64,000 nt of DNA from Clostridia bacterium (GCA_004347685.1 SLTJ01000032.1:118371-182370), one strand, 5' to 3'; counted from the first letter of the stretch, positions 9,137 through 62,551 are shown. Made by a program: numbers and translations. The notes: generated by a model from the letters alone, not told the origin.

Positions 9137-9146
9137 AAACCGGCGG

Positions 9147-11649: not shown

Positions 11650-12402
11650 TCAGCGGGCGCCGCCGAAACCCAGGAGGAACTTGAAGGCTTCCGGGTTTTC
11701 GACAAAGGCCTGGTACAGGCCCCTGCTCTTGACCACCTCGGTCGGCTGGGCCATACTGGGGGCCGCCATCATCTTCAGCCCTACCGAGTTGTGATAGTTG
11801 GGGTTGCGGATGAACTCGGTCTTGCCTTTCTCCCCGGCCACGCAGTAGTACGCGGCCCCCTTCTTGTCCCGGAAGGGCTCATACAGAGACTTGAACTGGC
11901 TTTCCACCAGGTTGGCCATGACCAGGCATTCTTCGCCGGGGTTCACCGTTACATGGCCGTACCCTGAGGGGACGAAAACCTTGTCCCCTTTCTTGGCGGC
12001 CACGGCAATTATTTCCTCAACGTCACCGCTGCGGGAATCTTTTTGCAGCAGGTACAGGGCTTCACCGCTCAGGACTTCGTAGTATTCGGTATAAGTATCT
12101 TCAGAATCGGGAACAGCGGGATGAAAGTGACCCACTGTCTTGGTGTACTCGCGGCCAAACAAACCCGGCAGGATGACGGTAAGGTCATAGCGGAGGCCAT
12201 GTTCGGCAAAGAGTTCCATGTCTGCGCCGTGGCCGACCCCGCGATACATATAGTATACCGGTCGTTCATCCAGGGGAATCGGCTCGTAAAGAACGGTGGC
12301 CATATCTGTCAAGCGCCGGACATCTGGCCCAGGGTGCGAGATTCCCTCGGCAAAAACCAGTTGGCCTCCCTCGCCTAACTGGATTTCTTTTCCCCAAAGC
12401 AT
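11650..12402 (-). CDS. Cupin-type glucose-6-phosphate isomerase family protein
   Basis: Cupin metal motif TVGHFHP...EYYEVLSGEA...GYGHVTVNPG. Resembles archaeal-type PGI, from memory. Confidence 0.55.
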   Translation of the reverse strand: MLWGKEIQLGEGGQLVFAEGISHPGPDVRRLTDMATVLYEPIPLDERPVYYMYRGVGHGADMELFAEHGLRYDLTVILPGLFGREYTKTVGHFHPAVPDSEDTYTEYYEVLSGEALYLLQKDSRSGDVEEIIAVAAKKGDKVFVPSGYGHVTVNPGEECLVMANLVESQFKSLYEPFRDKKGAAYYCVAGEKGKTEFIRNPNYHNSVGLKMMAAPSMAQPTEVVKSRGLYQAFVENPEAFKFLLGFGGAR

Positions 12403-12593
12403 TCCATCGGCCCCCCCTATTCTTGTCGCCCTAATTATACCTTTCCTGGCCGGAAAATCAAACCCTTTTTAGCATTGGATTTGCCAGATATATTTATACC
12501 CGGCCGCAGGTGGTGAGGGTGAGGTGGCTTCTGTTTGTCACCTGCCTGCATATAATTTAATGAAAGTCACTTACTCCTGGGGTGAGAAGACCT

Positions 12594-13462
12594 ATGGTAG
12601 ATTTCCTGAAACGGCTGGATGAGTTCCGCAGGCAGGAGGAGAGCGAGGCCTGGCAAGGCACCTTTGCCGAGTACCTGGATATGGTGGTGGAAAGGCCACG
12701 GGTCGCCAGGACGGCGCATGCTCGCATTTATGATATGATCGTGGCCGCCGGAGTGGAAGAAAAGGACGGTCAGAGAAGATACGAGTTTTTCTCCCGGGAA
12801 ATCTTTGGGTTGGAAAAGACCCTGCAGCGGCTGGTCGAGGAATATTTTCATTCCGCGGCCCGGCGCCTGGATGTACGCAAGCGCATTCTTCTGTTGATGG
12901 GGCCGGTAAGCGGAGGCAAGTCAACTATCGTGAACATGCTCAAAAGGGGGCTCGAGCGCTATTCCCGTACCGAGGAAGGGGCCATGTACGCCATCGCCGG
13001 CTGCCCCATGCATGAAGACCCCCTACACCTGATACCGCGGGAACTACGTCCGGAGTTCGCCGAGAAATACGGTATTGTCATCGAAGGCAGCCTCTGCCCG
13101 GTATGCAGGTTAATGGTGGAGGAAAAGTACCGTAACCGGGTGGAGCAGGTGCCGGTGAAACGCATCTTCCTTTCTGAGGAAAACCGGGTGGGCATTGGCA
13201 CCTTCAGCCCCTCTGATCCCAAGTCCCAGGACATCGCCGACCTGACAGGCAGCGTGGACTTCTCCACCATTGCCGAATATGGCTCGGAATCTGATCCCCG
13301 CGCCTACCGGTTTGACGGCGAGCTCAACAAGGCCAACCGGGGGCTGATGGAATTCCAAGAAATGCTCAAGTGCGACGAAAAATTTCTCTACAACCTCCTC
13401 AGCCTTTCCCAGGAAGGGAATTTTAAGGCAGGCCGCTTCGCCCTGATTTCGGCGGATGAAAT
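12594..13462 (+). CDS. prkA: PrkA serine protein kinase, 5' segment (gene interrupted by ICE)
   Basis: MVDFLKRLDEFRRQEE..., Walker A LLLMGPVSGGKST, ...EMLKCDEKFLYNLLSLSQEGNFKAGRFALISADE. After 13460 the ORF reads into unrelated element sequence and stops at 13643. Confidence 0.9.
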
Positions 13463-34741: not shown

Positions 34742-35686
34742 TTGTCTATCATCGGGCAGGGAAGAAGCGCCGGCGGGTATGCTGTCATTCAGAACAGTAC
34801 CCTGGACGGGCTCTTGCAACACGGCGGGGTGGACCTGGCCGGCTTCTACTTAGCGCTAAAGCGCTTTATTGACCGCCGCCAGGGCCCCACCTCCAACCAG
34901 ACCATGGACTGGAGCATCAAGTATTTTTGCACCAAGTTCACCATGGGACAGCAACGCTTCTACCGGCTGGCGGAGAAGTTATGGCAGTTGGGGCTTTTGG
35001 ACGTGGAAAAGGTTATCTCCCCGGACGGGTGGCAAAACAAGTACCTGGTGCACGACTATCCCCCGTACCAGGGGCCGCTACGGCCTTTTCGCCAGGGGAG
35101 TTTTAAGTACCGGAAGGGTGAAGGGGCGACCTTTGGGGAAGATGAGGAACAGGGCAAAGAAGCCCCTGTGGCGGTAGCCGCGTTCGGGCAGGAAACCTGT
35201 GCGGAGGTGGCAGGCGCGGCGGGTGATGACGGCAGCCGGGAGGGAATAGCCGGAGCGGGTATACCCAAATCAGGTATACCCGAATCAGATATACCCAAAG
35301 CGGATATACCTGCTGCAGGTATACCCGCCGCGGATACGCTTAGAAAAGACAACGTGGCAGGAAAAGACAAGGATGAAGAAAAGGATAACGGGAAGGAGAA
35401 AGAAAAGGGTGGGAATCCGTCCGTCCGTCAGTCCGTCTATCACCACGAGCCACTTGGTCAAAGCAGAAGACCGACGGACGGACGGATTGATTTCGGCAAC
35501 CCCAGACAAGTAACGCAATACTACGCCCAAAAGTTTGGCGCCACGGAAAGGCAGGTGATGCTGGCCATATTGGCGGTGCAGGCTCAGCTCGACAAGGGGA
35601 CCGTAATCATGGACACCAAGGCCTACTTCGAGAAAACCCTGACCCAGCTCCTGCAGGAGGAGGACTTTCGCAAGCACTTTGTCTGA
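34742..35686 (+). CDS. Putative replication/organiser protein (wHTH N-terminus, DnaD-like C-terminus)
   Basis: N-terminal FYLALKRFIDRR...FYRLAEKLWQLGLLDVEKV resembles RepA_N-type wHTH. C-terminal QYYAQKFGATERQVMLAIL...AYFEKTL resembles DnaD-like repeats. The middle holds G/DIPxx pentapeptide repeats. Weak assignment. Confidence 0.4.
   Translation: MSIIGQGRSAGGYAVIQNSTLDGLLQHGGVDLAGFYLALKRFIDRRQGPTSNQTMDWSIKYFCTKFTMGQQRFYRLAEKLWQLGLLDVEKVISPDGWQNKYLVHDYPPYQGPLRPFRQGSFKYRKGEGATFGEDEEQGKEAPVAVAAFGQETCAEVAGAAGDDGSREGIAGAGIPKSGIPESDIPKADIPAAGIPAADTLRKDNVAGKDKDEEKDNGKEKEKGGNPSVRQSVYHHEPLGQSRRPTDGRIDFGNPRQVTQYYAQKFGATERQVMLAILAVQAQLDKGTVIMDTKAYFEKTLTQLLQEEDFRKHFV
35258..35340 (+). repeat. Iteron-like tandem repeats (5.5 x 15 bp)
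   Basis: GGTATACCC / GATATACCC cores at 35258, 35273, 35288, 35303, 35318 and 35333. GGTATACC is palindromic. Confidence 0.8.
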
Positions 35687-38490: not shown

Positions 38491-41007
38491 GTGCGCCCGC
38501 AAGCGTGCTGAAAAGCATCGCGTGGGTCTTTCTGAAATCTGCCTTTGGCAAGGCAGTGGGCTCGATATGGAATTGCCCATCATCACCCGGCTTATCCGAA
38601 AGGGAAACCAGACGGGGAGTGCAGCATGCCGGGAAAGGCGCAAGTCAGCCAACCACCAGGCTGCGACTGAGCGTCGAGATGAAAAGTCCTGTATGAGGAT
38701 AAAGGCTTGATTGCCTGAACGATAGCCAGAGGGGTTTTATCGTCAACCACGGCGGAAAGATGGTTACAAACGCCGTGTGGCAGTGGGGTTGCGTACAGTT
38801 GCCTAAGTGCGCATACCACCATATCCCCTGCCTCCCAGCCGCAATAAGCGGAAAATGGCGAAAGTCGTATCCGACAACAGGACGCGCCGCGTTCAGACTG
38901 ACCTAAACGGGGATGACCTAAACCGGAGTGCTTGCATCCGCAAGCTATGGAAATTGTTCCCGAAAATCCGGTATGGTCACGGAGCCCTCGTAGTAGTCCG
39001 AGGTGGGGAAAGCCCGCCACATGGCGAAGGAGGGCAGTTTACTCTCCACTACAACGAAGGAAAGGTGCGTGAGGCATCATGAGAAGTCCCCAAGTTGTAC
39101 TGGAAAATCTACAGAAGCAGTCCTTGAAAAAGGACTACCGGTTCGAGCGTTTGTACCGGAATCTCTACAACCCTGACTTTTACCTGCTGGCATACCAAAA
39201 CCTGTACGCCAACAAAGGAGCCATGACCCCCGGCGTGGACGGACTAACGCTGGACGGCGTGGGTATGAAGCGCATCGAATCCCTGATTCAATCGCTCCAA
39301 GACCACAGCTACCAGCCACAACCGGCCCGCAGGCGGTACATCCCCAAGAAAAGCGGGAAAGGCCAGCGGCCACTGGGGATTCCATCGGCAAACGACAAAC
39401 TGGTGCAAGAAGTCGTGCGCATGCTGCTGGAAAGTATCTACGAGCCGACTTTCTCGAAATTCTCCCACGGGTTCAGGCCGAACAGGAGCTGTCACACGGC
39501 ACTCGCCCAGGTGCAGAACAACTTCACGGGAGTTAAATGGTTTGTGGAGGGCGACATTAAAGCCTATTTTGATACCATCGACCACCACACGCTTGTGGGC
39601 ATCCTGCGCAGGCGCATCAAGGACGAATCCTTGATCGCCTTGATCTGGAAGTTCCTCAAAGCGGGATACATGGAGGACTGGCAATACAACGCAACCTATA
39701 GCGGCACGCCGCAGGGTTCGGGAATCAGTCCCCTCCTCGCCAACCTCTACCTCCATGAGTTGGACATGTACATGGAAGAGTACAAAAAGCAGTTCGACAA
39801 GGGCGACGAGCGCGCAGTGGGTAAGGACTATGGGCGCACCCATAGGACCCATCAGTACTGGAAGGAAAAGTACGACGCCCTGTGGCACACCATGACAGAG
39901 GAAGAAAGGAAGGCGGCCCAAAGAGAAATCAAAGCCCTGCGCAAGCAGTTCCAACAATACCCTGCCAAAGACCCCATGGATGAAAACTACCGCAGAATCC
40001 AATACGTGCGGTATGCGGACGATTTTCTGATAGGAGTAATCGGCAGCAGGGCAGACGCGGAGAAAGTTAAGGCCGATATTGGCCGGTTCCTCTCCGAAAA
40101 GCTGAAGCTCGCCATGTCCCAGGAAAAGACGCTGATTACCCACGGACAGGACAAGGCACGTTTCCTGGGATACGACATCTCCATATGCCAGGACACGGCC
40201 ACAAAGCGGACATCCAGAGGGCAATCCCGCGTGTACACCTACCGTGTTAAGCTGTTCGTCCCCAAAGAAAAGTGGGTCGGAAAGCTGCTGGAATATGGTG
40301 TACTTAAAATCAAGACGGACGAGCACGGCAGGGAAAAGTGGAAACCGCTGCAAAGAGACGACTTCATGGGATTGGAGCCTCGCGAAATCGTATCCATGTA
40401 CAACGCGCAAATCCGGGGCATGTACAACTACTACCGGCTAGCAAATAACGTCTCGGTGCTGAACAAGTTTTACTACGTCATGGAGTACAGCATGTACAAG
40501 ACCTTTGCAGGCAAATTCAGCACCACTGTTGGAAAGGCCAAGACCAAGTACACGCGCGACGGCGTATTTGGCGTGGAATACATGACCAAGGCCGGCCCCC
40601 GGAAGGTCACCTTCTATAAGGGCGGATTCTCTCGTGTAACAGCGCCGCTGGGGGCTGGCGTGGACTGCAAGCCGGAGTACGTGGTCAACCACCAGCCCAA
40701 GGAGCTATTCTTCCGCATAAAGGCCGCCAAATGCGAGCTTTGCGGCAAGGAACACACGCCGGTCAATGTGCATCAGGTAGAGCGCCTGAAAGACCTGTCC
40801 GGCAACCTTCCTTGGGAATGTGTCATGCTGAAAAAGCGCCGAAAGACACTGGTCGTCTGCGAGGAATGCCACCAATCCATTCATTTAACTCTGTAGATTA
40901 CGAGTAAATGGAGAGCCGTATACATCGAGAGGTGTACGTACGGTTCGGGGGCGAGCATCCGGAAACCTGCCGCAGCAATGTGGCAAGGCGCTGGATGCTT
41001 AGCCTAC
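38491..41007 (+). mobile_element. Group II intron (2517 nt) with RT/maturase/HNH ORF
   Basis: 5' GTGCGCC. Domain V GAGCCGTATACATCGAGAGGTGTACGTACGGTTC at 40912-40945. 3' ...GCCTAC. The flanking exons join in frame (LLDEFG|NVGKLPAM). Confidence 0.9.
39079..40896 (+). CDS. Group II intron-encoded reverse transcriptase/maturase with HNH endonuclease domain
   Basis: RT motifs (GTPQGSGISPLLANLYL, RYADDFLIG), X/maturase region, C-terminal CELCG...CEECHQSIH. Confidence 0.95.
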   Translation: MRSPQVVLENLQKQSLKKDYRFERLYRNLYNPDFYLLAYQNLYANKGAMTPGVDGLTLDGVGMKRIESLIQSLQDHSYQPQPARRRYIPKKSGKGQRPLGIPSANDKLVQEVVRMLLESIYEPTFSKFSHGFRPNRSCHTALAQVQNNFTGVKWFVEGDIKAYFDTIDHHTLVGILRRRIKDESLIALIWKFLKAGYMEDWQYNATYSGTPQGSGISPLLANLYLHELDMYMEEYKKQFDKGDERAVGKDYGRTHRTHQYWKEKYDALWHTMTEEERKAAQREIKALRKQFQQYPAKDPMDENYRRIQYVRYADDFLIGVIGSRADAEKVKADIGRFLSEKLKLAMSQEKTLITHGQDKARFLGYDISICQDTATKRTSRGQSRVYTYRVKLFVPKEKWVGKLLEYGVLKIKTDEHGREKWKPLQRDDFMGLEPREIVSMYNAQIRGMYNYYRLANNVSVLNKFYYVMEYSMYKTFAGKFSTTVGKAKTKYTRDGVFGVEYMTKAGPRKVTFYKGGFSRVTAPLGAGVDCKPEYVVNHQPKELFFRIKAAKCELCGKEHTPVNVHQVERLKDLSGNLPWECVMLKKRRKTLVVCEECHQSIHLTL

Positions 41008-51665: not shown

Positions 51666-52073
51666 ATGAGCGAAACCAGGGTAACCAAGAGACGGGTGGC
51701 GGTGATGGTGGACACGCCGGTTTTCGCCCGGCTGTGGGCCGAGGCCCAGGCCGAGGGAGTATCGGTGGCCGAGGTGGTAAGAAGGATCATTGACGAGCGC
51801 ATCCGGGGCGACTCCGCCCGCCTGGGTGTCCCGGTGGTGGAGGATGCCGTGCGGCGGGTCATGGAGCCCCATGTGGACCGGCTGGCGGGGATGCTGGCCC
51901 ACGCTGGCGTCGCCGCCGGCACTGCGGCCTGGCTGGCCCGGGCGCTGGTGAATCTCCTCACCCAGGTGGACCCCGACGAGGCCTGGGAGCAGGCGGTGGC
52001 CCGGGCCAAAACGGGTTTGCGCCGCAGCCTGAAGGCGGCGGAGGAGGACGAGGATGAAGAAGACCGGGACTAA
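51666..52073 (+). CDS. Ribbon-helix-helix relaxosome accessory protein (candidate)
   Basis: KRRVAVMVDTPVFARLWAEAQAEGVSVAEVVRRIIDE RHH pattern. Overlaps the relaxase start. Confidence 0.55.
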   Translation: MSETRVTKRRVAVMVDTPVFARLWAEAQAEGVSVAEVVRRIIDERIRGDSARLGVPVVEDAVRRVMEPHVDRLAGMLAHAGVAAGTAAWLARALVNLLTQVDPDEAWEQAVARAKTGLRRSLKAAEEDEDEEDRD

Positions 52074-53376
52074 GGCGCCACCCTTTTTGAAAATCAAGCA
52101 CAGCGAGCAGGCCCAAAAGGACGCCGCCCACGTCCGCTACATCGGTTCCCGCCCGGGGGTGGAAAAAGTCCTGGTGCAAGACGATCTGGCTGCCGACGCG
52201 GCGCACATCGAGTACGCCGGGGCGCGGCCCCGCAGCACCGGCCTGTTCGGGCCGGATCCTGAGCATCCGCCCCTTTTGGCCGCGGCTATGAAGGAAGTGG
52301 GCAACCGGTCCGGCGGCCCCTCCTGGCGGCTGGTCTTGAGCCTGCGGGAGGACGACGCCCGGGAGCTGGCGGTTAGCGGCCTGGCCGCCTGGCAGGACCT
52401 GACCAGGCGGTGCATGGCCCAGTTCGGCCAGGCCACGGGGATACGGCCGGAGCACCTGCGCTGGGTGGCCGCCCACCATCCCGAGCCCGGGCACCCCCAC
52501 GTGCACGTCATCGCCTGGCTGGCGGACGGCGCTCCCCGGCGGCGGGGCTTGCTCTCCAGCATGGAGCTGCGGGAAGTGCGCCGGGGAATGACCAGGGAGC
52601 TGTTTGGCCCCCTGCGCGCCCGCCTGGCGGCGGAGCGTACCCTGAACCGTAACACCATGCTGGACACCGTGCGCGAGGATGTGGCCCGGGCGGAGCGCCT
52701 CCTGCGGCGGGTGGAACTGGAGTTGCAGGCCCAGGAGCCGGTGGGCGAGAGGTTGCCGCCCCGCCTGGAAAGGGCGGACCTGGAGCTTCTCGCCCGCCAA
52801 CTGGAAGGCCTGGCGCAAAAGATGCCCGGGCACGGCCAGGCCAAGCTGGCCTACCTGCCGGCGGAGATCAAAGAGGAAGCCAGAGAGGTTGCCCGCTGGC
52901 TCCTGGAAAGGCCCCAGGTGGCCGGGGTGCTGGCCGGCTACGAAAAAGCCACCAGGGAACTGACCAGGCTCTATACCCGCCAGCCGGAGAAGGCTGAAGA
53001 AGCCTGGCGGAAGGCCTACGACGACCTGCGCGACCGGGTGGCCCAGGTGGTAGTCCGGTCGGCGGCGGAGCTGAACCGGACCTCCCGGCGGCCCGCTGCC
53101 ACTCAGGAGCGTAACGTGGAAGAGAGGCCAAAACCGCAGGTGCAGGACAGGGCGGAGCTGCCGGCGGGGGAAGCAGGCCGGACGCGGCAACCCCACTCAA
53201 GTAAGGGCATTGATTTAGCCCGCGTTACCTGGCGTTCCGCCTGGCGCACCCTGGAACGGGAGCGCCTGCGGGCCGAGGCCAGGGCGGAACTGGCCAGCCT
53301 GCGGGAGGTCGAGCGGGCCGAGGAACGGGCGCGGCGGGAGCGCGAGCGCCAGGGCGGGGGATTAGGAAGGTTATGA
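52054..53376 (+). CDS. Relaxase (MobL/MOBP-like)
   Basis: Repeated AHVRYIGSRPGVE / AHIEYAGARPRSTGLF motifs and the His cluster HHPEPGHPHVHV. Long helical C-terminus. Confidence 0.7.
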   Translation: MKKTGTKAPPFLKIKHSEQAQKDAAHVRYIGSRPGVEKVLVQDDLAADAAHIEYAGARPRSTGLFGPDPEHPPLLAAAMKEVGNRSGGPSWRLVLSLREDDARELAVSGLAAWQDLTRRCMAQFGQATGIRPEHLRWVAAHHPEPGHPHVHVIAWLADGAPRRRGLLSSMELREVRRGMTRELFGPLRARLAAERTLNRNTMLDTVREDVARAERLLRRVELELQAQEPVGERLPPRLERADLELLARQLEGLAQKMPGHGQAKLAYLPAEIKEEAREVARWLLERPQVAGVLAGYEKATRELTRLYTRQPEKAEEAWRKAYDDLRDRVAQVVVRSAAELNRTSRRPAATQERNVEERPKPQVQDRAELPAGEAGRTRQPHSSKGIDLARVTWRSAWRTLERERLRAEARAELASLREVERAEERARRERERQGGGLGRL

Positions 53377-53404
53377 GGCAAAAAACAAAGGAGGTTTGAT
53401 CCGG

Positions 53405-54433
53405 ATGATTATCGCGGTGGACGTGGGCTACGGTTTCACCAAGGCCCTCAACGAGTACCAGCGGAGCGTAGTCTTTCCGTCCCTGGTGGCGCCGGGCCAG
53501 GACCGCTCCCTGGAAGGCATCTTTGGTGCGGGACAGTCCGGCCTGGACTGCCTGCACGTCAGGGTGAACGGCCAGGAGTTCTTCGTGGGTGAGTTGGCCT
53601 GGAGGGGAGGGATGGGCGCCTCCTTCACCCTGGAGGCGTGGAAAATCGGTCACCAGAATACCCAGGTCTTGTTGGCCACGGCGGCGGCCCTGCTCTTGCC
53701 GGTGGGAGTTGCCACCATTCACCTGGCCACCGGGCTACCCTACGAGGACTACCGCCACCAGCGCCAGCCCATGGAAGAGATGCTCAAGGCCTTCCGGGCC
53801 GAGGTGGAATTCCTGGGTGGCCCCCTCACCGGGGAGGGTCGAACTGTGCGCTTTCATCAGATAACGGTATTCCCCCAGGCCGCCGGCGCCGTGTATGCTT
53901 CCCTGGATACCCAGACCCTGGCCCAGGTGGCCGGGAGCGGCAGGCTGATCAGCGTGGTGGACGTGGGTTACAAAACGACGGACGTGGTGACCTTTGAGGC
54001 CGGGCACACCTTCCGCCTGCGGCCGGACCTCTCCGGTACGGTGGACCAGGGGATCAGCGACCTGGAAAGGCGTTTGCTGGCTGTCTTTACCGAAAAAACA
54101 GGGCGGCGCCTGGACCCGGCCAGGGCGGGGCGGTTACTTGAGGAGGGCGGGATAGAGCTTGGGGGCAGGTTCCTGGACCTGCGCGAGGAAATCAGCCGGA
54201 CCAGGGAAGCTCTGGCGGGCTTAATCAGGGATAAGGTGCGAACTATATGGCGCGACCAGGGAGAGTTTATCTGGCGGGTGTACCTGGTGGGCGGCGGTTG
54301 CGTCTACCTGGCGGAGGCTCTACAGAACCTGCACCCGGCCATGCATTTGGTAGAGGATGCCCAATTCGCCAACGCTCGCGGTTTCCTGGCTGTGGCCCGG
54401 CGGCGGGAAAGGGGGCTGGCGGGCACAAGGTAG
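53405..54433 (+). CDS. ParM/StbA-like actin-family segregation ATPase
   Basis: IIAVDVGYGFTK (phosphate 1), VVDVGYKTTDV (phosphate 2), VYLVGGGC (adenosine). AAAGGAGG RBS. Confidence 0.8.
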   Translation: MIIAVDVGYGFTKALNEYQRSVVFPSLVAPGQDRSLEGIFGAGQSGLDCLHVRVNGQEFFVGELAWRGGMGASFTLEAWKIGHQNTQVLLATAAALLLPVGVATIHLATGLPYEDYRHQRQPMEEMLKAFRAEVEFLGGPLTGEGRTVRFHQITVFPQAAGAVYASLDTQTLAQVAGSGRLISVVDVGYKTTDVVTFEAGHTFRLRPDLSGTVDQGISDLERRLLAVFTEKTGRRLDPARAGRLLEEGGIELGGRFLDLREEISRTREALAGLIRDKVRTIWRDQGEFIWRVYLVGGGCVYLAEALQNLHPAMHLVEDAQFANARGFLAVARRRERGLAGTR

Positions 54434-54657
54434 ACCTTGATTTGTGTTGCGGCAGTAGCTCCTCAAGCCACGACCCTCCTTATAATTGGGTGTCCGGCAG
54501 GCTCACGCCTCTTACTATGCAGTCTCAGCGTCTGTTTTTCCGTTACCTGCCGGACAGTTTTTAGCGACAGAAAAAGCCGTCAGACCGGCGGCGTCCTCCA
54601 ACCCTTATCAGCTAGTGCGCTTGTTGATTCTACCCTTGTCGGACAGGAGGTGATCCC

Positions 54658-54945
54658 TTGGGGGGAAAGAAGTTTTCCCTGCGGCTTTGCCCGGAAACGG
54701 AAGCCATTCTCGCCAATGTGTCTCGGGAACGGCGGAGTGAGTACGTGCGGCAGGCCATCCTGTTTTACCATAACCAGGGTGCAGTGCTCAGGAGGATAGA
54801 GGAGAAGCTTGACCTGGTGATGGAGGGCCTGGGAGAGGGGTTTACTCTACCAGGGCCACCGGAGCGGAAACAGGGGACTATAGGAGGTGAACCAGCCATA
54901 GAGGCGTACCTCTTTTCGGGGCAGGAGGAGATATTTAATATCTAG
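54658..54945 (+). CDS. Ribbon-helix-helix protein (ParR-like adaptor candidate)
   Basis: KKFSLRLCPETEAILANVSRERRSEYVRQAILFY RHH pattern downstream of the parM-like gene. Confidence 0.5.
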   Translation: MGGKKFSLRLCPETEAILANVSRERRSEYVRQAILFYHNQGAVLRRIEEKLDLVMEGLGEGFTLPGPPERKQGTIGGEPAIEAYLFSGQEEIFNI

Positions 54946-55164
54946 GAGGAGGGGGGAGAGAAATCATGGGCACGTTACCTTTAATCCTTTGGGCCGGCCC
55001 TGGAAAAGCCCATAGTGATGATGAGGCCTTTTTGGGAGATTTTTGATGGAAACCAGCAGGAAAATCAAATAACGTGTCGAATAGCCATAACATGCTATTA
55101 ACCTTTTAGAGAAGGGCTGTATGATGAAAGGATTTCCAGGTACTAAAAGAACACTAGTTCAAAT

Positions 55165-55212
55165 GGGGGGGGGGGGGGGGTAATAATTGCTATAGATGTC
55201 ATTTAGTGGAAA
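55165..55212 (+). repeat. Poly-G tract (G16) + conserved 32-nt box, copy A
   Basis: G16 at 55165-55180, then TAATAATTGCTATAGATGTCATTTAGTGGAAA. Paralog at 59525-59569. Confidence 0.9.
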
Positions 55213-55332
55213 CAAATCCCCTCTACTTCCTCCTTCTCTTTTTTCTTCTTTTCCTTTGCCTCGCCCGAGGCAAAATCATTCTTTTCCTCCATAATTTCCC
55301 TAACACCAACAGCAAATTTACCTTCCCCGGGT

Positions 55333-55430
55333 ATCCTACGCTCAAGGCAAACCTGTCGAAAGGTAGGGACGCAGAGCCACGGGTTTTCGAGCCCCTTTTT
55401 CGGGGTATGATCGCCAGGCTGCTGCAGGAT
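55333..55430 (+). promoter_or_regulatory. c-di-GMP-I (GEMM-I) riboswitch #1
   Basis: ACGCUCAAGGCAAACCUGUCGAAAGGUAGGGACGCAGAGCCACGGGUU... matches the GEMM-I core (GGCAAACC..GAAAG..GGGACGCAAAGCC). P1 is ATCCT/AGGAT. Confidence 0.8.
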
Positions 55431-55739
55431 TCTTGCCTTTTAGCTGGTAGCTTTACCCGCTACCATGGGCAATAAGCTTTTGAAAGAAAGCTCCTGAAGG
55501 TAGCTTGCTTCAACCTGAGCGCATGGTTGGAAGTAGTCATCGAATGGCGGGCGGCCTTAAGCAACCCAGGCTTCTTATCTGTTGGGCGGTCCTATTTGTT
55601 GAGTGCATACCTGCCAGTGGATGCTACGCCCTACATCCCATAGGGGAAATGCCGAGCAGAGGTGGCAAGGCTAGTGACTGCCCATCACGAGTTCAGGAGA
55701 AAGCGCGCAGCGCTATTTGCTTGAAGGAGGAACAAAGAT

Positions 55740-55931
55740 TTGGTTGATGGTCCATTAACTCAGGAAGAGATCGAAGAACTAGTGGCTCTGATCAAGGAGG
55801 GCAAAGTTCTGGCACCCGCCGGGCGGGCTACGCTGGAAGGAGAAACTGGTGATAGCGATTCTTTGCAGGAGAAAATGGCTGACCGTTTTCCCAATAAGCT
55901 GGGTGCTGCCCAAATGTTAAAGGGCAGTTAA
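55740..55931 (+). CDS. Small hypothetical protein
   Basis: GAAGGAGG RBS before TTG. 63 aa, acidic. Confidence 0.35.
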   Translation: MVDGPLTQEEIEELVALIKEGKVLAPAGRATLEGETGDSDSLQEKMADRFPNKLGAAQMLKGS

Positions 55932-55954
55932 ATTCGACCTTATGAGGGAAGGAG

Positions 55955-56467
55955 GTGAGCAGTATGAAGAAGTGGGGGTTATTGGGCGCCTCCATAATCC
56001 TCGCTGCGGGCATGATGCTGTTCTTCTTCCAGGACAGCGAGGCGGGGGCAGCTACGGGAGGCGTCACCGCCCAGGCCAAAGTTAACCCCAACATCTCCGT
56101 GAGCGTCAGCCCCGCCAGCATAGTGCTTGAAGGGGTACCTGGTTCTACAGTTATCAGTACCAGCCCCGTAGTGGTCAACGTCAAGTCCAACGTGAACTAC
56201 AACTTGAGCGTCAAGGCGACCCAGGACCTAACGGATGCCAGTGTGAGCCCGGCCTTGACCCTCCCTATCAGCCGCTTGAGCTGGGCCCCGGCGGGAACAG
56301 GAACGTGGACGGCCTTTAGCCTGACGGACACAAGCATCGCTACCAATGAACCCAAGGCCGCTGGAACAGGGAAAGACTACAGTTTCGATTACCAGTTTGC
56401 CATTGACATCAATGACCCGGTAGGCACCTATTCCACGGATATTGTCTATACGGCCGTGGCCTACTAG
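55955..56467 (+). CDS. Secreted beta-rich protein (candidate surface/fibre subunit)
   Basis: Signal peptide MKKWGLLGASIILAAGMMLFFF...AGAA. Alternating beta-strand pattern with Ser/Thr/Val/Asn-rich composition, ends ...GTYSTDIVYTAVAY. Confidence 0.6.
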   Translation: MSSMKKWGLLGASIILAAGMMLFFFQDSEAGAATGGVTAQAKVNPNISVSVSPASIVLEGVPGSTVISTSPVVVNVKSNVNYNLSVKATQDLTDASVSPALTLPISRLSWAPAGTGTWTAFSLTDTSIATNEPKAAGTGKDYSFDYQFAIDINDPVGTYSTDIVYTAVAY

Positions 56468-56646
56468 TCCATGCAACTGGCGTACAGGGATTGCTATTCT
56501 GTCAGAGGGGCAAGCCGGGAAGCGAGGGGCAACAGTCCTGCAGCTAGTGGCTTGTGCTTCTCCGGCTTGCTTCCTTAGTCTGTCATTTGCTTGGCCGAAG
56601 GGTAACGCCTAGCTGATGTTACGGGTGGTGGGACGGAGGGCTGGCG

Positions 56647-58026
56647 TTGAAGAACCTGGAACGGAAAGCGCTTTTCTTTTTTCTCGGCTTATTTTTCGGG
56701 CTGCTGTTTACTCCAACGGCCTATGCGGAAGTAAGGCTGGGGCTTACGCCGGCCAAGGTAGAGTTGTCTTTGGCCGGAGGTGAAGGTGGCAGTGGAGAAA
56801 TAACCGTGGTCAACGAAGGCAGCGAGCCTTTGGAAGTAAGCTTCTACGTTCGTGACTATTACTTTGCCGACGACGGCAAGATCGTTTTTGCCGAGGGTCA
56901 GGAAAAAAGGTGGTCGGCCAGCAAGTGGCTTGAAGTGGGGCAAGTATCCGGCCGCATTTCCCCGGGCGCAAGTATCAGGCTTCCCTACCGGGTACGCGTG
57001 CCACTAGGTGCCGAGCCCGGCAGCCACTGGGCGGTCATCTTCGCCGAAGGCAGGGCGATAGGGAACAATACGCGCACCTCGCCCCTGGGGGTCCGGGTGG
57101 GGGCAGTGGTGCTGATCACTGTTCCCGGCGACGTGATTGCCAAGGGAGAAATACTCGACTTCCGCGTCCCTGCAGTTGGCTATAAGAAGGTTCCCGTCAC
57201 CTTCAAGTTCCGCAACAGCGGCAATGTCCATATCAACCTGCGCCCCCAGCTAGAGGTGTTCCACAAGGGTCAGGTTATTAACCGGACGCAGTTGGACGAG
57301 GTTGTTTCTTACCCGCAAACCGTCCGCGAGGTAAAGGGCTACCTGCAGCTTGGGAATATCTGGGGACTGCACGAGGCCGTGCTGAAAATCGAACAGGAGG
57401 GGGGTACTATGGTTTACCGGGCTCCATTTCTTTTGCTTCCCTGGCCGTGGATCCTGGGTGGCCTTCTTCTTCTCGCTTATCTTTTGGCCTGGCTTATCAT
57501 ACGCAGGAGAAGGAAACAGGCCAGCCCGAGACTTGACGAATACCCGGCTCCCGGCGAACTGGCCGTGGGGAGAGAAGCGGCTGCGGTCCGCCAAGCCCTG
57601 GGCATAAGCGCGGCCCTCCCGTTGCCAGCGCAGCGGCCTTCCTCCCGGTCCAGCCGGGCTGATTTTACCAAGACACTCAATATCTTGACGGAAACCGTCG
57701 AACAGCTACGGCAGGAAAACGCCCTGCTAAGGCGCAATCTGGAAGACCTCTCTAGCCAGGCGAGCAGCGAACGCTGGGAAAAGGTGGTGGCAGAAAGCCT
57801 CATTGACGCCCAGACGGAAATTGAAAACGTCCGGGCTAAAGCCGCGGCCAGCATAGAGAGGGCCAACCGTGAGGCCCACAAGCAGATGGCCGAGATCGAA
57901 AACCGGTTTAGAGAAAAGTTCAAGGTATTGCTCAATGATTACAAGGCCACGCTCTCGGACGTAGAGAGGTTTTTGGGCAGGCTTGGTAGTGCGGGAGGAG
58001 CAGTAGATGAGGGCGGAGACAGTTAA
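56647..58026 (+). CDS. Membrane protein: Ig-like ectodomains + TM + DivIVA-like coiled-coil tail
   Basis: Signal peptide. Beta-sandwich-like ectodomain (GEITVVNEGSEPLEVSFYV...). TM segment LLLPWPWILGGLLLLAYLLAWLII + RRRRK. Cytoplasmic coiled coil (VEQLRQENALLRRNLEDL...). Confidence 0.6.
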   Translation: MKNLERKALFFFLGLFFGLLFTPTAYAEVRLGLTPAKVELSLAGGEGGSGEITVVNEGSEPLEVSFYVRDYYFADDGKIVFAEGQEKRWSASKWLEVGQVSGRISPGASIRLPYRVRVPLGAEPGSHWAVIFAEGRAIGNNTRTSPLGVRVGAVVLITVPGDVIAKGEILDFRVPAVGYKKVPVTFKFRNSGNVHINLRPQLEVFHKGQVINRTQLDEVVSYPQTVREVKGYLQLGNIWGLHEAVLKIEQEGGTMVYRAPFLLLPWPWILGGLLLLAYLLAWLIIRRRRKQASPRLDEYPAPGELAVGREAAAVRQALGISAALPLPAQRPSSRSSRADFTKTLNILTETVEQLRQENALLRRNLEDLSSQASSERWEKVVAESLIDAQTEIENVRAKAAASIERANREAHKQMAEIENRFREKFKVLLNDYKATLSDVERFLGRLGSAGGAVDEGGDS

Positions 58027-58483
58027 TCCTTTCATTGAAGAGATGGTGAAGGTTTTCCAAGAGGAACTGGCCATAACCTGCCAAAAGAAAAGCGTTTCCC
58101 TCCAGCATGTCCCAGTAACCTGGCATGAGGTAAACGTGCTTATAGACATCAGGGGTGCGGCGGAAGCGGCGGTTATCTACAGTATGGAGGAAGATACGGC
58201 CTGTGCCCTGGCAGGGGCCTTTCATAAAGATAAGTCCTTCCAGGGCTACTGCTACGAAGTAGAAGATTCGGTCAAGGAGTTATTTAACATTGTCAGCGGG
58301 CAAGCCCTGAAAATACTGGAGAATAAAGGTTTAGCCTGTACCCTGCCGGGACCGCCGTCCGTCATTATAGGGCGCCTGCGCGCCGTCCCTGTAGTACGCC
58401 GCCCCCTGTTAGTGGTAATCTTGGATACGCCTGTTGGCTTGGTCCGGGTGAGCGTGTCAATGGTGGATAAGGCTGGCCGATAA
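58007..58483 (+). CDS. CheX/CheC-like domain protein
   Basis: VNPFIEEMVKVFQEEL...VNVLIDIRGAAEAAVIYSMEEDTACALAGAF...ELFNIVSGQA follows the CheX pattern. Confidence 0.65.
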   Translation: MRAETVNPFIEEMVKVFQEELAITCQKKSVSLQHVPVTWHEVNVLIDIRGAAEAAVIYSMEEDTACALAGAFHKDKSFQGYCYEVEDSVKELFNIVSGQALKILENKGLACTLPGPPSVIIGRLRAVPVVRRPLLVVILDTPVGLVRVSVSMVDKAGR

Positions 58484-58554
58484 ACTGTTTTCCTTCGCAC
58501 TTTCTGCTTACCCCCATGATCGTGGCACAATAGTAATCATTTAGGAAGGGGATC

Positions 58555-59178
58555 GTGTTGTCGAGCGTTAGTGCCTACGTGGAGGCCGATGAGAAGGAGC
58601 CACCGGTACATAGCGGAACGCCGGTAGATTTTGAAGCCATTTATTCTCATTACCTTAACCTGCTATACTGGATGACACACCGTTTCTGCAGTCCTGGATC
58701 ACCGGACTTTGAAGATTACCTTCAGGAAGCCGCTATTGCTCTGTGGGAAGCAACGCAGAGCTATGATCCCCATAAAGGTAACGCCAATGCCTTCATAGCT
58801 AACTGCGTGCGGTGCAGGCTAATAAACTATTTGAAGGCCGAGAGGCGCCGGCAGCCCACCATCTCCCTTGATGCCCAGCCGGACGATGCCAACGGACTAT
58901 ATGAAAGGTTAGGCCTTCCCAGCGCCAACGTGGAGGCCATAGTTATCGGGAGAGAAGAACGGAAAAACCTAATTGACAGCCTTACCCAACTAGAAAGGAA
59001 TTGTGCCCTTTTATTTGCCTGGGGTTTCTCCTACGATGAAGTAGCCAGGGTTTTGGGCATAACCACGAAATCCGTGGATAATGCCTTGCGTCGGGTACGG
59101 CTAAAGGGATGCCGCGCCTTTACTCCTCTAAATAAATTCCGGGGAGGGAGAAAGGATAAACTGGAGGCGAGTGTTTGA
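58555..59178 (+). CDS. Sigma-70-family (ECF-like) RNA polymerase sigma factor
   Basis: Region 2 (DYLQEAAIALWEATQSYDPHKGNANAFIANCVRCRLINYLK) and region 4 HTH (FSYDEVARVLGITTKSVDNALRRVRLK). Confidence 0.75.
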   Translation: MLSSVSAYVEADEKEPPVHSGTPVDFEAIYSHYLNLLYWMTHRFCSPGSPDFEDYLQEAAIALWEATQSYDPHKGNANAFIANCVRCRLINYLKAERRRQPTISLDAQPDDANGLYERLGLPSANVEAIVIGREERKNLIDSLTQLERNCALLFAWGFSYDEVARVLGITTKSVDNALRRVRLKGCRAFTPLNKFRGGRKDKLEASV

Positions 59179-59362
59179 CGCCCTGGAGGCGTATGACCGC
59201 TTGTTACAGGAAAACCGGGTAGTTGAGGCCCTCGAAATTCTTTACCAGGAGGCCGGAGCAGATAAGGTCACTGACGATGATTGGCGGGTAGCCCTGGCCC
59301 GTTTCCGTACCGTCTATGGCCGACCTCCCCTCTTCCCTGGGGAGCAAGACGGCGGCGAGTGA
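59171..59362 (+). CDS. Small hypothetical protein
   Basis: 63 aa. Start overlaps the sigma gene stop (possible anti-sigma or accessory protein, with no direct evidence). Confidence 0.3.
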   Translation: MFDALEAYDRLLQENRVVEALEILYQEAGADKVTDDDWRVALARFRTVYGRPPLFPGEQDGGE

Positions 59363-59524
59363 AATAACTCTTCCTTAAAACCAGGTTAGTCAACCTTTTC
59401 CCCTGGGTCTCGATAGCTTTTGGCAGGAGATTGGAATAAAATGTCGAAGAAACAAATTAAGCCATTAGAAAGGACTGGACACAGTGGCAAGGCCTGTCGA
59501 AAAGATGAACAATTGTTCAATTAT

Positions 59525-59569
59525 GGGGGGGGGGGGGTAACAATTGCTATAGATGCCATTTAGTGGAAA
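59525..59569 (+). repeat. Poly-G tract (G13) + conserved 32-nt box, copy B
   Basis: G13 at 59525-59537, then TAACAATTGCTATAGATGCCATTTAGTGGAAA (30 of 32 identical to copy A). Confidence 0.9.
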
Positions 59570-59679
59570 TATGTCTCTGCTGCTTTTTTCTCCCTCTCTG
59601 TGGCTTTGCCCGGTGTGGAAATACTCCTGCCCGCTGTCGTTCCCCTGACATTTTAACTGCAACTTCACTTTCTCCCAAT

Positions 59680-59775
59680 ATCCTACGCTCAAGGCAAACC
59701 TGTCGAAAGGCAGGGACGCAAAGCCATGGGTCTAAAGCCCCTTTTGGGGGTATGATCGCCAGGCTGCCGCAGGAT
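59680..59775 (+). promoter_or_regulatory. c-di-GMP-I (GEMM-I) riboswitch #2
   Basis: ACGCUCAAGGCAAACCUGUCGAAAGGCAGGGACGCAAAGCCAUGGGUCUAAAGCC... is a near-textbook match to the Vc2-type aptamer. Confidence 0.88.
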
Positions 59776-59791: not shown

Positions 59792-59814
59792 GGCAGCTCA
59801 AGCTGCCATTTTTT
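59792..59814 (+). terminator. Expression-platform terminator of riboswitch #2
   Basis: GGCAGC-TCAA-GCTGCC + ATTTTTT. GCTGCC is also part of the aptamer 3' P1 region, allowing mutually exclusive folds. Confidence 0.65.
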
Positions 59815-59833
59815 GTTAAGAGGGAGTAAGAAG

Positions 59834-60562
59834 GTGGTAGATCTGTCAGCAGGTTTGTCAGGGGTTGAAAACCTTCGGACATTTATCGGGGCCATGCAGG
59901 AGTACGACCCCACATTACTTAGCCATAGCTTGGGGGTAACTAATATCGCTTGGCAGTTGGCTTCTTACCTAAAAGTGGAAAATGGCTTTCAAGTTCTGCT
60001 GCAGGGCGCCCTTCTCCATGATATAGGCAAGACCTTAATTGACCGGGCCATTTTACAAAAGCCTGGCCCGCTAAGCCCAGCGGAGCAAGAGATCATGAAG
60101 CGTCATCCAGTGGACGGCGCGCAAATGCTGGCCGAAAAAGGCTTTAGCAAGGAACTCCAGGTGGTAGTGCTCTATCACCACGAGCGTTGGGACGGCAAGG
60201 GTTACCTGGGCCTAGCCGGGAATGACATGCCGCTTAATGCTCAAATTGTTGCCCTGGCTGACGCCATAGACGCCATGTCCAGTGACCGCCCGTACCGGGA
60301 GGCTCTTCCGCCGCTCGCGGTTTACGATGAGATTGAGAAAGGTGCTGGCAGCCAGTTTTCTTCTGAATTGGTTGGCCGTCTTGCTCAGGCAGGCTTTTGG
60401 CCCACAGATGGTTTGGGGAAAGAAAGGGTGCTGCATCTCATTAATCGGGAGCGCCAGTGGCTCAATTTCTTGGCGGAGCAGTTTCACAGTCTGCGGCACC
60501 CCCTGGTCCAAATACAAAACAGGAGGCTGGATAAGTTGGTAACGGCATACTATGGGGAATAG
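59834..60562 (+). CDS. HD-GYP-type c-di-GMP phosphodiesterase (GYL variant)
   Basis: HSLGV...LLHDIGK...HHERWDGKGYLGL...ALADAIDAMSSDRPYR. GAGGGAG RBS before the GTG at 59834 (track start 59813 lies inside the terminator). Confidence 0.8.
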   Translation: MVDLSAGLSGVENLRTFIGAMQEYDPTLLSHSLGVTNIAWQLASYLKVENGFQVLLQGALLHDIGKTLIDRAILQKPGPLSPAEQEIMKRHPVDGAQMLAEKGFSKELQVVVLYHHERWDGKGYLGLAGNDMPLNAQIVALADAIDAMSSDRPYREALPPLAVYDEIEKGAGSQFSSELVGRLAQAGFWPTDGLGKERVLHLINRERQWLNFLAEQFHSLRHPLVQIQNRRLDKLVTAYYGE

Positions 60563-60832: not shown

Positions 60833-60862
60833 TTGACGTATTCTTCCTAGACATGGTAAGAT
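60833..60862 (+). promoter_or_regulatory. Sigma-A-like promoter upstream of riboswitch #3
   Basis: TTGACG, 18 nt spacer, TAAGAT with TG at the extended -10 position. Confidence 0.5.
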
Positions 60863-60883
60863 ATGGTATATACGATCCAATAC

Positions 60884-60978
60884 CAGCGCTAAGGGTAAAC
60901 TTACCAAAAGGTGAGGACGCAGAGCCATAGGGTCTAAGGTGCTGGTGTGATGGCACTACGACAGCCTGGCCGCCGCTG
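60884..60978 (+). promoter_or_regulatory. c-di-GMP-I (GEMM-I) riboswitch #3
   Basis: CAGCGCUAAGGGUAAACUUACCAAAAGGUGAGGACGCAGAGCCAUAGGGUCUAAGG... P1 is CAGCG/CGCTG. More divergent than #1 and #2. Confidence 0.7.
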
Positions 60979-60989
60979 TAGGACGGTCT

Positions 60990-61019
60990 GACCTGCCCTT
61001 TCTCGCGGCAGGTCTTTTT
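60990..61019 (+). terminator. Expression-platform terminator of riboswitch #3
   Basis: GACCTGCC-(9 nt)-GGCAGGTC + TTTTT. Confidence 0.7.
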
Positions 61020-61124
61020 GTCTCTAGAAGGGCTGTTCTGTATTGCCGATAAACAGTGTCGGGGTTGGCGATAAAACTTCGGCGCTTCGCTCGGCGGCTT
61101 CCCCAAAAAGGAGGGCGGTGAGCC

Positions 61125-61370
61125 ATGCAGCGGAAGCCAAAACTGCGGGAATTGATCGTTAGAGTTAAAAACGGTGAGGAGGACGCCGTCCTTGAAGTGG
61201 TGCAGCGGTTCATTCCACTGGTCAGGAAGTACAGCCGTCGCATGGGCTATGACGAAGCCTGTTCCGACCTGGTCGTCTGGATTGTAAGCGCGGTCCACAG
61301 GTATGAACCGCGTACCACCTGGGGCCGGGACGAACTCCAGAAATATTTCGCGAGCAAACGGCATGACTAG
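61125..61370 (+). CDS. Small HTH protein (Tn916 orf8 / HTH_16-like)
   Basis: LRELIVRVKNGEEDAVLEVVQRFIPLVRKYSRR resembles the small conjugative-transposon HTH/sigma region-2-like proteins. AAAGGAGGG RBS. Confidence 0.55.
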   Translation: MQRKPKLRELIVRVKNGEEDAVLEVVQRFIPLVRKYSRRMGYDEACSDLVVWIVSAVHRYEPRTTWGRDELQKYFASKRHD

Positions 61371-61388
61371 GAAAAATTTTTTTTGGTA

Positions 61389-61424
61389 GGGGGTTGTCAA
61401 AATGCCCCCTACTTTCTCTTTATT
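61389..61424 (+). promoter_or_regulatory. Element-specific promoter-like box, copy 1
   Basis: GGGGGTTGTCAAAATGCCCCCTACTTTCTCTTTATT, part of a ~75-nt repeat shared with 62060-62135. Confidence 0.45.
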
Positions 61425-61514
61425 AAGTAGAGGGCAAGAAATGAAAACCGGGGGAGGTGAAAAAGATGGAACCCTACACCTGACGACGGTGAATACGACC
61501 TGGAAGAGGCTAGG

Positions 61515-61904
61515 GTGGTGGCCTGGTTCGTGACCGGCCTACGCCATGAAGCGCTCCGGTTGGCCAGGAAACACAGGCGACTGAAAGAGCGTGAGTTGCT
61601 CATCCTAAACGAACAATTGAAGAACGAGGCGGGAGGTGAGGCCATAGCCAGAATGCTCAGTACCGTTAACCCACCGCCGGACCTCCTTACCGAATTAGAG
61701 AACAAGCTGGTCCTCCAGGAAGCCCTCGCGTTGCTCACGCCGCTGCAGCAGAGGGTGGTCGTGGCAACGGTCCTGGAGGGTGTAACGGAACAAGAATTAG
61801 CCGGGGAAATGGGGGTGACCAAGCAGGCGGTAAACCGGATCAAAGAACGGGCTCTGGACAAGTTGCGAAAATATTTTGTCCTGGACAAGCCTCCCAGCAA
61901 GTAG
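61515..61904 (+). CDS. Small sigma-70 region-4 protein (Tn916 orf7-like)
   Basis: LTPLQQRVVVATVLEGVTEQELAGEMGVTKQAVNRIKERALDKLRKYF region 4 HTH. The start is ambiguous: the strong RBS+ATG at 61466 is in the -1 frame relative to this ORF and stops after 5 codons. Confidence 0.6.
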   Translation: MVAWFVTGLRHEALRLARKHRRLKERELLILNEQLKNEAGGEAIARMLSTVNPPPDLLTELENKLVLQEALALLTPLQQRVVVATVLEGVTEQELAGEMGVTKQAVNRIKERALDKLRKYFVLDKPPSK

Positions 61905-62077
61905 AGCCTAGTCCAGGACGGACAACCACAACCGCCCCGATCCGCAGGTAGTGGATTGCCGTTGATCATTGTACTCTATTCACGACTTGAAGTAAACCCG
62001 GAAGAGAATCCCTGTCACCGTGCCGGTAACTCTTCTCTACAAATTGCTGAACTAGCCTGGGTAAAAATTTTCCTTGA

Positions 62078-62113
62078 GGGGGTTGTCAAAATCCCCACTG
62101 CTTTCTCTTTATA
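62078..62113 (+). promoter_or_regulatory. Element-specific promoter-like box, copy 2
   Basis: GGGGGTTGTCAAAATCCCCACTGCTTTCTCTTTATA. Confidence 0.45.
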
Positions 62114-62117
62114 GGGT

Positions 62118-62551
62118 GAAGGGTCAAGAAGTGGGTCTTGTAGAACGGGTGCAACAAGTGTTCTTTGAGAATGTAACGCCGTTACCGCCCGGAGCGCCAG
62201 GCATTGCGGTGGCGGCGAGGCTTGGTGCCCGTGCTCACGCCGGTGTACCTGACCGTATCAGGCCGGAAGGTGGCACAAGGCTATAGTGCCACCACAAACG
62301 GTTGGATAAGGTTCGGGGAACCACCCTCCCTCCGGAGAGGGTCTGGGCGTGGAGTGAGCCCTGTCGGCCGCGGTAAAAAACGCGGTGGGAACCACAGGCG
62401 GGGTAGGCGCGCGCCAGCAGCGAGGCGCAAGCGGGTACCAAGGGCATTTGCCCAATAGGAGGCTGGGGGCCGGGCAACAGATCCAGCAAACTCGGAACCG
62501 GGGACTTCTTAAAGTAGAGCAAGAGCCGAGCCCCTGAAACGTTAGCAAACT
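62118..62551 (+). other. Hairpin-dense non-coding stretch (candidate ncRNA or single-strand origin)
   Basis: About 430 nt with no credible ORF. Local stems GGTGGCAC..GTGCCACC, CCCTC..GAGGG, CCGCG..CGCGG, GGGCA..TGCCC. Preceded by box copy 2. Confidence 0.35.

Follow-up and report, generated by a model that had tools for sequence, protein, structure and literature searches.

Why do two long runs of guanine stand at the head of two c-di-GMP riboswitch units in a Clostridia bacterium, and what would they do there? The question arises from a 64-kb stretch of DNA (64,000 nt, hereafter the window). An initial annotation of it had reported G16 at 55165-55180 and G13 at 59525-59537, each upstream of a riboswitch, and had called homopolymers of this length rare. 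The sequence read-out gave exactly these coordinates and the same unequal lengths (16 vs 13 Gs). We refer to the two promoters, with the leaders, riboswitches and genes behind them, as unit 1 and unit 2.

55165-55180, plus strand: G16 tract, predicted promoter spacer of unit 1 (sequence read-out)
59525-59537, plus strand: G13 tract, within the predicted promoter spacer of unit 2 (sequence read-out)

We observed that these are the sole G runs longer than six in the window. Runs of 1, 2, 3, 4, 5 and 6 Gs occurred 7333, 4157, 1020, 303, 114 and 20 times, runs of 7-12 did not occur, and the longest C run was 7. A geometric model fitted to the window's own G-run length table (extension probability 0.373) predicted 0.09 runs of at least 13 and 0.005 runs of at least 16. 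Both tracts were extreme outliers in this distribution, in agreement with the claimed rarity.

The source is a metagenome-assembled genome (MAG), a setting in which long G runs could be sequencing or assembly artefacts such as dark-cycle poly-G. We regard an artefact as hardly credible here, because both tracts are contig-internal with unique sequence on either side, because both are present again in independent Logan contigs of run SRR7821207, which cross them unbroken, and because the isolate genome of Moorella mulderi (MiSeq, 188x) has a G run, G8, at the orthologous position. With a feature found in two paralogs, two assemblies and an isolate genome, the assembly artefact that the initial annotation had named as fatal to its reading is effectively refuted. 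Logan contig L003 was 100% identical to window 55334-59708 and read tract 2 as G13. Logan contig L004 was identical to window 51941-55361 save for T to G at 55181, and has G17 + AATAAT in place of the window's G16 + T + AATAAT. This was the 1 differing base in 7.8 kb between the MAG and the Logan contigs, which represent the same population, and its position is the 3' border of tract 1. The discordance, which an artefact would explain, is a T/G call with no change in length, perhaps an error of homopolymer sequencing. The length of tract 1 is known to within ~1 base. Hypermutability of G runs of 13-16 holds for every bacterium studied, and all three tracts (G16, G13 and G8) lie within the hypermutable range, from about 8-9 G/C upward.

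The tracts are part of a larger conserved cassette. The 32-nt box that had been noted after each tract (TAAYAATTGCTATAGATGYCATTTAGTGGAAA) was present at both sites with 30/32 positions identical, and no further copy was found in the window with up to 3 mismatches allowed (chance expectation 0). The conserved block is larger than first described and begins 5' of the tract, at a GAAC-N4-GTTC palindrome. From 5' to 3', the cassette consists of this palindrome, an overlapping -35-like TTCAAW, G(n), a -10-like WAYAAT and the rest of the box. Its elements, and the motifs upstream of it, are the following.

55149-55160, plus strand: palindrome GAACACTAGTTC, firmicute LexA/Cheo-box type, overlapping the unit 1 -35-like hexamer
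55158-55163, plus strand: -35-like TTCAAA of unit 1 (promoter scan, TTCAAA-18-AATAAT, 9/12 matches)
55182-55187, plus strand: -10-like AATAAT of unit 1, within the box (promoter scan)
55181-55212, plus strand: box copy 1, holding the predicted -10, start site and early transcribed region
59507-59518, plus strand: palindrome GAACAATTGTTC, LexA/Cheo-box type, unit 2
59516-59521, plus strand: -35-like TTCAAT of unit 2, weak (3/6), from a relaxed scan, 17 nt before AACAAT at 59539
59538-59569, plus strand: box copy 2, including the -10-like AACAAT at 59539-59544
55098-55125, plus strand: alternative promoter-like site TTAACC-16-TATGAT, unit 1 only (promoter scan)
55075-55081, plus strand: TGTCGAA heptamer, ~90 nt 5' of tract 1, invariant in the alignment of units 1 and 2 and M. 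mulderi
59442-59448 and 59495-59501, plus strand: two TGTCGAA heptamers 5' of tract 2

Each tract fills a predicted spacer between -35 and -10, in support of its earlier placement in or next to a promoter. In unit 1 the spacer is T+G16+T (18 nt, promoter scan). In unit 2 it is TAT+G13+T (17 nt, TTCAAT-17-AACAAT), a promoter below the 9/12 threshold of the scan that was recovered by the relaxed scan. The -35-like hexamers are weak (4/6 in unit 1, 3/6 in unit 2) and are overlapped by the 3' half of the palindrome, and the -10-like hexamers have A2 and T6 in common in all three homologs (AATAAT, AACAAT and TACAAT). The palindrome-to-(-10) distance is 21 nt in unit 1 and 20 nt in unit 2. A tract between the core elements, the mark of simple-sequence-repeat promoters, was predicted from sequence in all three homologs.

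Other readings of the promoter were discarded. An extended -10 within the box (TGCTATAGAT) does not end in the conserved T and has been lost from the M. mulderi box. A -35 at TTGCTA within the box has, by eye, no usable -10 16-18 nt 3' of it in unit 1 and M. mulderi, and no further feature supported, again by eye, ECF-type or sigma-54-type readings of GAAC or GG-N10-TTGC. The TGTCGAA heptamer, conserved ~90 nt 5' of the tract in all three homologs (in M. mulderi at about 8882 of its contig), occurs 10 times in the window against 4.2 expected, with two of the 10 inside aptamers. It is identical to the core of the Spo0A 0A box, and it may have a corresponding role.

The elements that follow the box were identified directly. 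The initial annotation had placed an aptamer 3' of each box, and Rfam detected a c-di-GMP-I aptamer there at 123 nt (unit 1) and 114 nt (unit 2), or 155 and 146 nt after the tract.

55213-55335, plus strand: leader of unit 1, CT-rich, with 93% identity to M. mulderi and poor conservation vs unit 2
55336-55426, plus strand: c-di-GMP-I aptamer 1 (RF01051, 60.1 bits vs a gathering score of 35)
59684-59772, plus strand: c-di-GMP-I aptamer 2 (RF03167, GGC variant, 73.3 bits vs a gathering score of 59)
59792-59817, plus strand: terminator-like hairpin and T run, GGCAGCTCAAGCTGCC then ATTTTTTGTT
55740-59362, plus strand: operon predicted under unit 1, six ORFs with Pfam and NCBIfam matches, same order in M. 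mulderi
59834-60562, plus strand: HD-GYP-type HD-domain protein of unit 2, c-di-GMP phosphodiesterase family (Pfam HD_5 and HD; NCBIfam)

The aptamer of the M. mulderi ortholog scored 56.9 bits in Rfam. Aptamer 1 scored 57.1 bits on the c-di-GMP-I-GGC model RF03167 (at 55337-55427), compared to 60.1 on RF01051, and the ligand specificity of aptamers 2 and 1 may perhaps be non-standard. The hairpin at 59792-59817 is the likely expression platform of riboswitch 2. A 313-nt non-coding stretch (55427-55739), 94% identical to M. mulderi, separates aptamer 1 from the first gene and far exceeds the usual length of an expression platform. A search for weak Rfam matches across 54950-55960 found the aptamer alone.

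The unit 1 operon begins and ends with ORFs of 63 aa. Between them lie four genes. The product of the first has 167 aa and an N-terminus like a signal peptide; that of the second has 459 aa, signal-like and transmembrane-like segments, and a C-terminus resembling DivIVA. The other two encode a CheX-like protein and a sigma-70 family factor with regions 2 and 4. AlphaFold2 modelled the 167-aa protein too poorly for a fold search (mean pLDDT 46). The window proteins are in the database as TDA67853.1 and TDA67858.1 (Clostridia bacterium D9V47, NCBI MAG), and the HD-GYP-type protein matched a database protein of 242 aa at 100% identity. Phase variation typically targets such genes as a secreted/membrane-protein operon with a sigma factor, or an HD-GYP phosphodiesterase. 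The interpretation first placed on the tracts was supported in part, by the predicted promoter location, the length differences and the type of cargo; its G-quadruplex alternative was not, as set out below. The initial annotation had missed the LexA-type palindrome, the assignment of the -35 and -10 and the presence of the -10 within the box.

In the reading that we prefer, and to which we give even confidence, the tracts are slippage-prone promoter spacers of the porA type, in series with a possible LexA operator and a riboswitch. Each tract would be the spacer of a sigma-A-type promoter that drives the long leader, the c-di-GMP-I riboswitch and the genes behind it. Slipped-strand mispairing at replication in a run of 13-16 Gs would yield daughter spacers at least 1 base longer or shorter. 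Such changes would move the promoter into or out of the 16-18 nt optimum and so produce heritable, reversible ON, weak or OFF states. c-di-GMP at the riboswitch would then gate elongation of the initiated transcripts, and a LexA-type repressor at the palindrome would perhaps add control of initiation. The cassette anatomy and spacing were read directly; we infer promoter use, slippage rates and the effect on expression from them. The runs would probably make expression of the secreted-protein operon and of the c-di-GMP-degrading enzyme randomly switchable. A -10 preceded by G could need little help from a -35, and tract length would then matter less.

Comparison of tract lengths in relatives had been proposed as a check, and one ortholog was retrieved. 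Window 54984-59199 was 93.3% identical to 8791-12990 of M. mulderi DSM 14980 (Moorella/Neomoorella) contig L005, with conserved gene order. Three homologous promoters could be compared: unit 1, unit 2 and the M. mulderi ortholog. The tract differed between unit 1 and M. mulderi (G16 vs G8) within flanks that are 94-95% identical, and was the largest non-coding indel between them (8 nt). The most diverged segment was the box (24/31 identical). This pattern was reversed between the MAG paralogs, where the box is 30/32 identical and the leaders have diverged with indels. Box and tract thus changed together in M. mulderi. At both box positions that separate the paralogs, M. mulderi matches unit 2; therefore, most of the box changes are specific to the M. 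mulderi lineage. Its substitutions turned TGCTAT into TACGAT. This -10-like hexamer stands 16 nt from the TTCAAA shared with unit 1, a distance that would suit the shorter G8 spacer. We estimate a roughly 5-10% chance that a 4/6 hexamer lies at the right distance in M. mulderi by coincidence. The G16, G13 and G8 promoters all keep a predicted hexamer spacing of 16-18 nt, which is suggestive, though not proof, of a selected spacing around an unstable tract, in a set of three sequences only and with 4/6 hexamers being common.

The same compensation bears on a less probable reading, in which the cassette is a shared promoter/operator module, the G run is a fixed spacer or protein-contact element, and regulators bind the box and the palindrome. 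Tract length would drift between genomes and be compensated, as M. mulderi seemingly did for its shorter tract, and switching would have no adaptive or regulatory role. The strong conservation of the box between the paralogs (30/32) would fit such a module, as would an imperfect palindrome seen directly in the box (TAGATG-Y-CATTTA), the near-constant palindrome-to-(-10) distance (21 vs 20 nt) and the passage of both Logan contigs across the tracts unbroken. We consider this reading unlikely on two counts. Runs of 13-16 Gs are hypermutable, so some switching is hard to avoid if the tract lies in a spacer. At least 13 Gs have been kept in two old paralogs when the rest of the 64 kb has none longer than G6, which argues that length itself is selected.

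Tract length also bears on a DNA G-quadruplex on the non-template promoter strand that would modulate initiation or replication. G16 lies within the promoter region and suffices for an intramolecular three-tetrad quadruplex (15 G needed), but G13 and the orthologous G8 are too short for three tetrads, and the property is not conserved across the homologs. The G-quadruplex alternative of the initial annotation is therefore disfavoured, and we consider it quite improbable.

Reading frames through the tracts raise a further alternative, that each tract lies inside a short upstream ORF and that frameshifts switch translation of a leader peptide. An ORF through the tract ends at the box TAG in unit 2 (59442-59564, 40 codons) and in M. 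mulderi (L005 8931-9008, 25 codons), and that of unit 1 (55121-55183) ends at a TAA right after G16. The frames 5' of the tract differ between the paralogs, however, and most M. mulderi changes, like both inter-unit box differences, would alter the encoded amino acid in that frame. By our estimate, an open frame of 25-40 codons arises by chance in ~15-30% of cases. We found no sign of coding constraint in the short ORFs through the tracts in either unit or in M. mulderi, and we hold a leader peptide to be highly improbable.

The promoter-like site TTAACC-16-TATGAT of unit 1, ~40 nt upstream, would put the tract within the RNA if used. It is conserved in M. mulderi, there with an 18-nt spacer. 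A transcribed tract could act in the RNA leader by pairing with the CU-rich leader or by forming an RNA quadruplex, and a long hairpin enclosing the box could affect riboswitch folding, RNA stability or termination. Minimum free energy (MFE) folds paired the G16 of unit 1 with CCCCUCU...CCUCC and the G8 of M. mulderi with CCCCCC after the box, and the leader is CU-rich in 3/3 homologs by alignment. Base composition by itself, however, accounts for G:CU pairing, and unit 2 lacks both the upstream promoter-like site and a C run behind the box. The leaders folded no better than shuffled sequences (z = -0.9, +0.8 and -1.9), and leader RNA folds with and without the tract were indistinguishable from shuffled controls. 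Action at the RNA level seems improbable to us.

We return to the palindrome, which in the preferred reading would add a repressor to the slippage-prone spacer. Its arms are invariant across units 1 and 2 and M. mulderi, and the central 4 nt vary in the alignment. The Cheo-box core is exact in all three homologous promoters (GAACACTAGTTC, GAACAATTGTTC and, in M. mulderi, GAACATTAGTTC) and lies within the predicted promoter region. The window has 2 GAAC-N4-GTTC sites only, one for each tract-bearing unit. In Bacillus and clostridia, the LexA operator takes the form GAAC-N4-GTTC/T (PMC4234289). The core here is the same as in those firmicute operators, and so is its placement, in overlap with the -35-like hexamer. 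A relaxed search of 20 kb of M. mulderi DNA gave one further match, GAACAAATGTTT, directly 5' of a Y-family polymerase (IMS) gene. Y-family DNA polymerases are classic SOS genes, and this match fits the motif being a LexA box in this lineage. The palindromes are probably LexA-type operators, and it is from the motif that we infer LexA binding. We know of no LexA-regulated promoter with a hypermutable spacer or a downstream riboswitch.

The setting of the cassette differs between the two genomes. In M. mulderi, the 4.2-kb module (promoter cassette, riboswitch and six genes) has chromosomal gene neighbours. In the window, it follows a MobL-type relaxase (52054-53376), a ParM-like actin (53396-54433) and a plasmid-stability-like gene. 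These differing neighbourhoods suggest that the module moves between contexts. If so, the control cassette would travel with its genes between chromosomal and plasmid-/ICE-like contexts.

An extended version of the preferred reading is doubtful in our judgement. The cassette would be a portable three-input unit (LexA-type operator, hypermutable poly-G spacer and c-di-GMP riboswitch) that is duplicated on a plasmid-/ICE-like element and bet-hedges both cargoes. Its inputs would be DNA damage at the operator, a stochastic heritable ON/OFF state at the spacer and a second messenger at the riboswitch. The surface-structure/sigma-factor operon and the phosphodiesterase would be bet-hedged, and the mobile element would randomise the c-di-GMP state of its host.

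Further copies were sought in other collections. A genome-collection scan with TTGCTATAGATGNCATTTAG, an over-strict pattern that misses the M. mulderi box, returned two chance matches only (Oceanospirillaceae and Bacteroides). A metagenome scan with ATAGNTGNCATTTAGTGNAAA returned 27 matches, all without a G run, palindrome or riboswitch, and several of them in NusG-like coding sequence. No match was found in viral-contig scans for the box, for the palindrome with a G run or for the 167-aa protein, in a distant blastn of unit 1 against a plasmid database, or in a protein search with a chimeric translation of spurious minus-strand ORFs across the tract. Contigs of close HD-GYP homologs and of homologs of the 167-aa protein yielded no extra promoters on inspection. 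These contigs carry unrelated upstream DNA or begin within the aptamer, in the latter case because assemblies break at the repeated riboswitch.

Such contig starts are a feature of short-read contigs of relatives, two of which begin within a c-di-GMP-I aptamer (L007 1-60 and L009 1-60); L003 also does (1-30). They imply that each genome of this lineage carries several riboswitch copies that are almost identical. Judging from these sequences, the riboswitch-HD-GYP arrangement is common to, and repeated in, the genomes of the HD-GYP relatives. The window itself has a third c-di-GMP-I aptamer (60884-60977, plus strand) with a promoter-like TTGACG-18-TAAGAT, a preceding TG and no poly-G tract. It precedes, on the plus strand, an HTH_16 protein (61125-61370) and a sigma-70 region-4 protein (61515-61904), within a region spanning 60833-61904. 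This pair resembles the Tn916 orf8/orf7 regulatory pair, and a regulator of a conjugative element may be under c-di-GMP control via the third aptamer.

Homopolymeric-spacer phase variation is textbook biology in host-adapted Gram-negative pathogens; Neisseria meningitidis opc, for example, has a poly-C tract in its promoter spacer. In meningococcal porA, a poly-G tract in the -35/-10 spacer sets the transcript level, and gain or loss of 1 base alters it (PMC3899988). The likeness of our cassette to porA and opc is a homopolymeric G/C tract between (here predicted) -35 and -10 elements, and a cargo of surface proteins, here likewise predicted. The differences are a longer tract (13-16 residues here vs about 9-14 there), a thermophilic Moorella-like Clostridia lineage as host, and a cassette, known from its sequence, that exists in two copies, each with an overlapping LexA-type palindrome and a riboswitch behind it. 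In Bordetella pertussis fim2/fim3, a poly-C tract between the BvgA site and the -10 sets activator-polymerase geometry through its length. A palindromic site likewise lies immediately 5' of the tract here, but it resembles a repressor (LexA) operator rather than an activator site and overlaps a -35-like hexamer.

Two Clostridioides difficile systems are similar in logic. In the flgB operon, the Cd1 c-di-GMP-I riboswitch and an invertible flagellar switch act in series in one leader (PMC5386303). Both systems would join a stochastic heritable switch, proposed in our case, to a class I c-di-GMP riboswitch in series. The flgB switch, however, is a 154-bp invertible element 3' of the riboswitch that acts post-initiation, whereas the candidate here is a simple-sequence repeat in the promoter, 5' of the riboswitch. 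No inverted repeats flanking either leader were found in the window, and the likeness to an invertible switch is one of logic only. C. difficile pdcB is a phase-variable c-di-GMP phosphodiesterase (PMC9286219). There, a c-di-GMP-degrading enzyme under phase variation makes the whole signalling state heterogeneous, which the HD-GYP phosphodiesterase of unit 2 would parallel; the switch of pdcB is site-specific inversion, and its enzyme family differs from the HD-GYP family of unit 2. By these analogies, the closest mechanistic precedent is porA, and the closest logical precedents are flgB and pdcB.

To our knowledge, homopolymeric-spacer phase variation is barely documented in free-living anaerobic Firmicutes. 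As far as they reached, our literature searches gave no account of it from Moorella-type thermophilic acetogens, or of its coupling in series to a c-di-GMP riboswitch. The feature would be of the homopolymeric-tract promoter kind, but the host is an unusual one, and so is the serial arrangement with a LexA-type site and a c-di-GMP riboswitch. If this is correct, promoter repeat-based phase variation of c-di-GMP signalling would be new for the thermophilic acetogen lineage, and these organisms would diversify surface structures and c-di-GMP turnover stochastically, atop ligand sensing. Moorella strains are under development as gas-fermentation chassis, and a hypermutable switch acting on a sigma-factor/surface operon and a phosphodiesterase would be a hidden source of heterogeneity in cultures, for example in aggregation or biofilm behaviour. 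M. mulderi DSM 14980 is culturable and the cassette is small.

Other features of the window were recorded. Rfam detected a full-length OLE (ornate large extremophilic) RNA at 2132-2731 on the plus strand (511.6 bits), which fits an anaerobic, extremophile-type Firmicute host, and a match to a group II intron catalytic domain at 40911-41007, also on the plus strand (57.2 bits). A 47-nt direct repeat (61388-61434 and 62077-62123, 83% identical) consists of GGGGG-TTGTCAAAAT-CCCCC followed by a CT-rich stretch; it may represent a promoter or operator that recurs in the element. An iteron-like cluster of tandem repeats at 35246-35437, with periods of 15/30, 18 and 12 nt, may be a plasmid replication or partition site.
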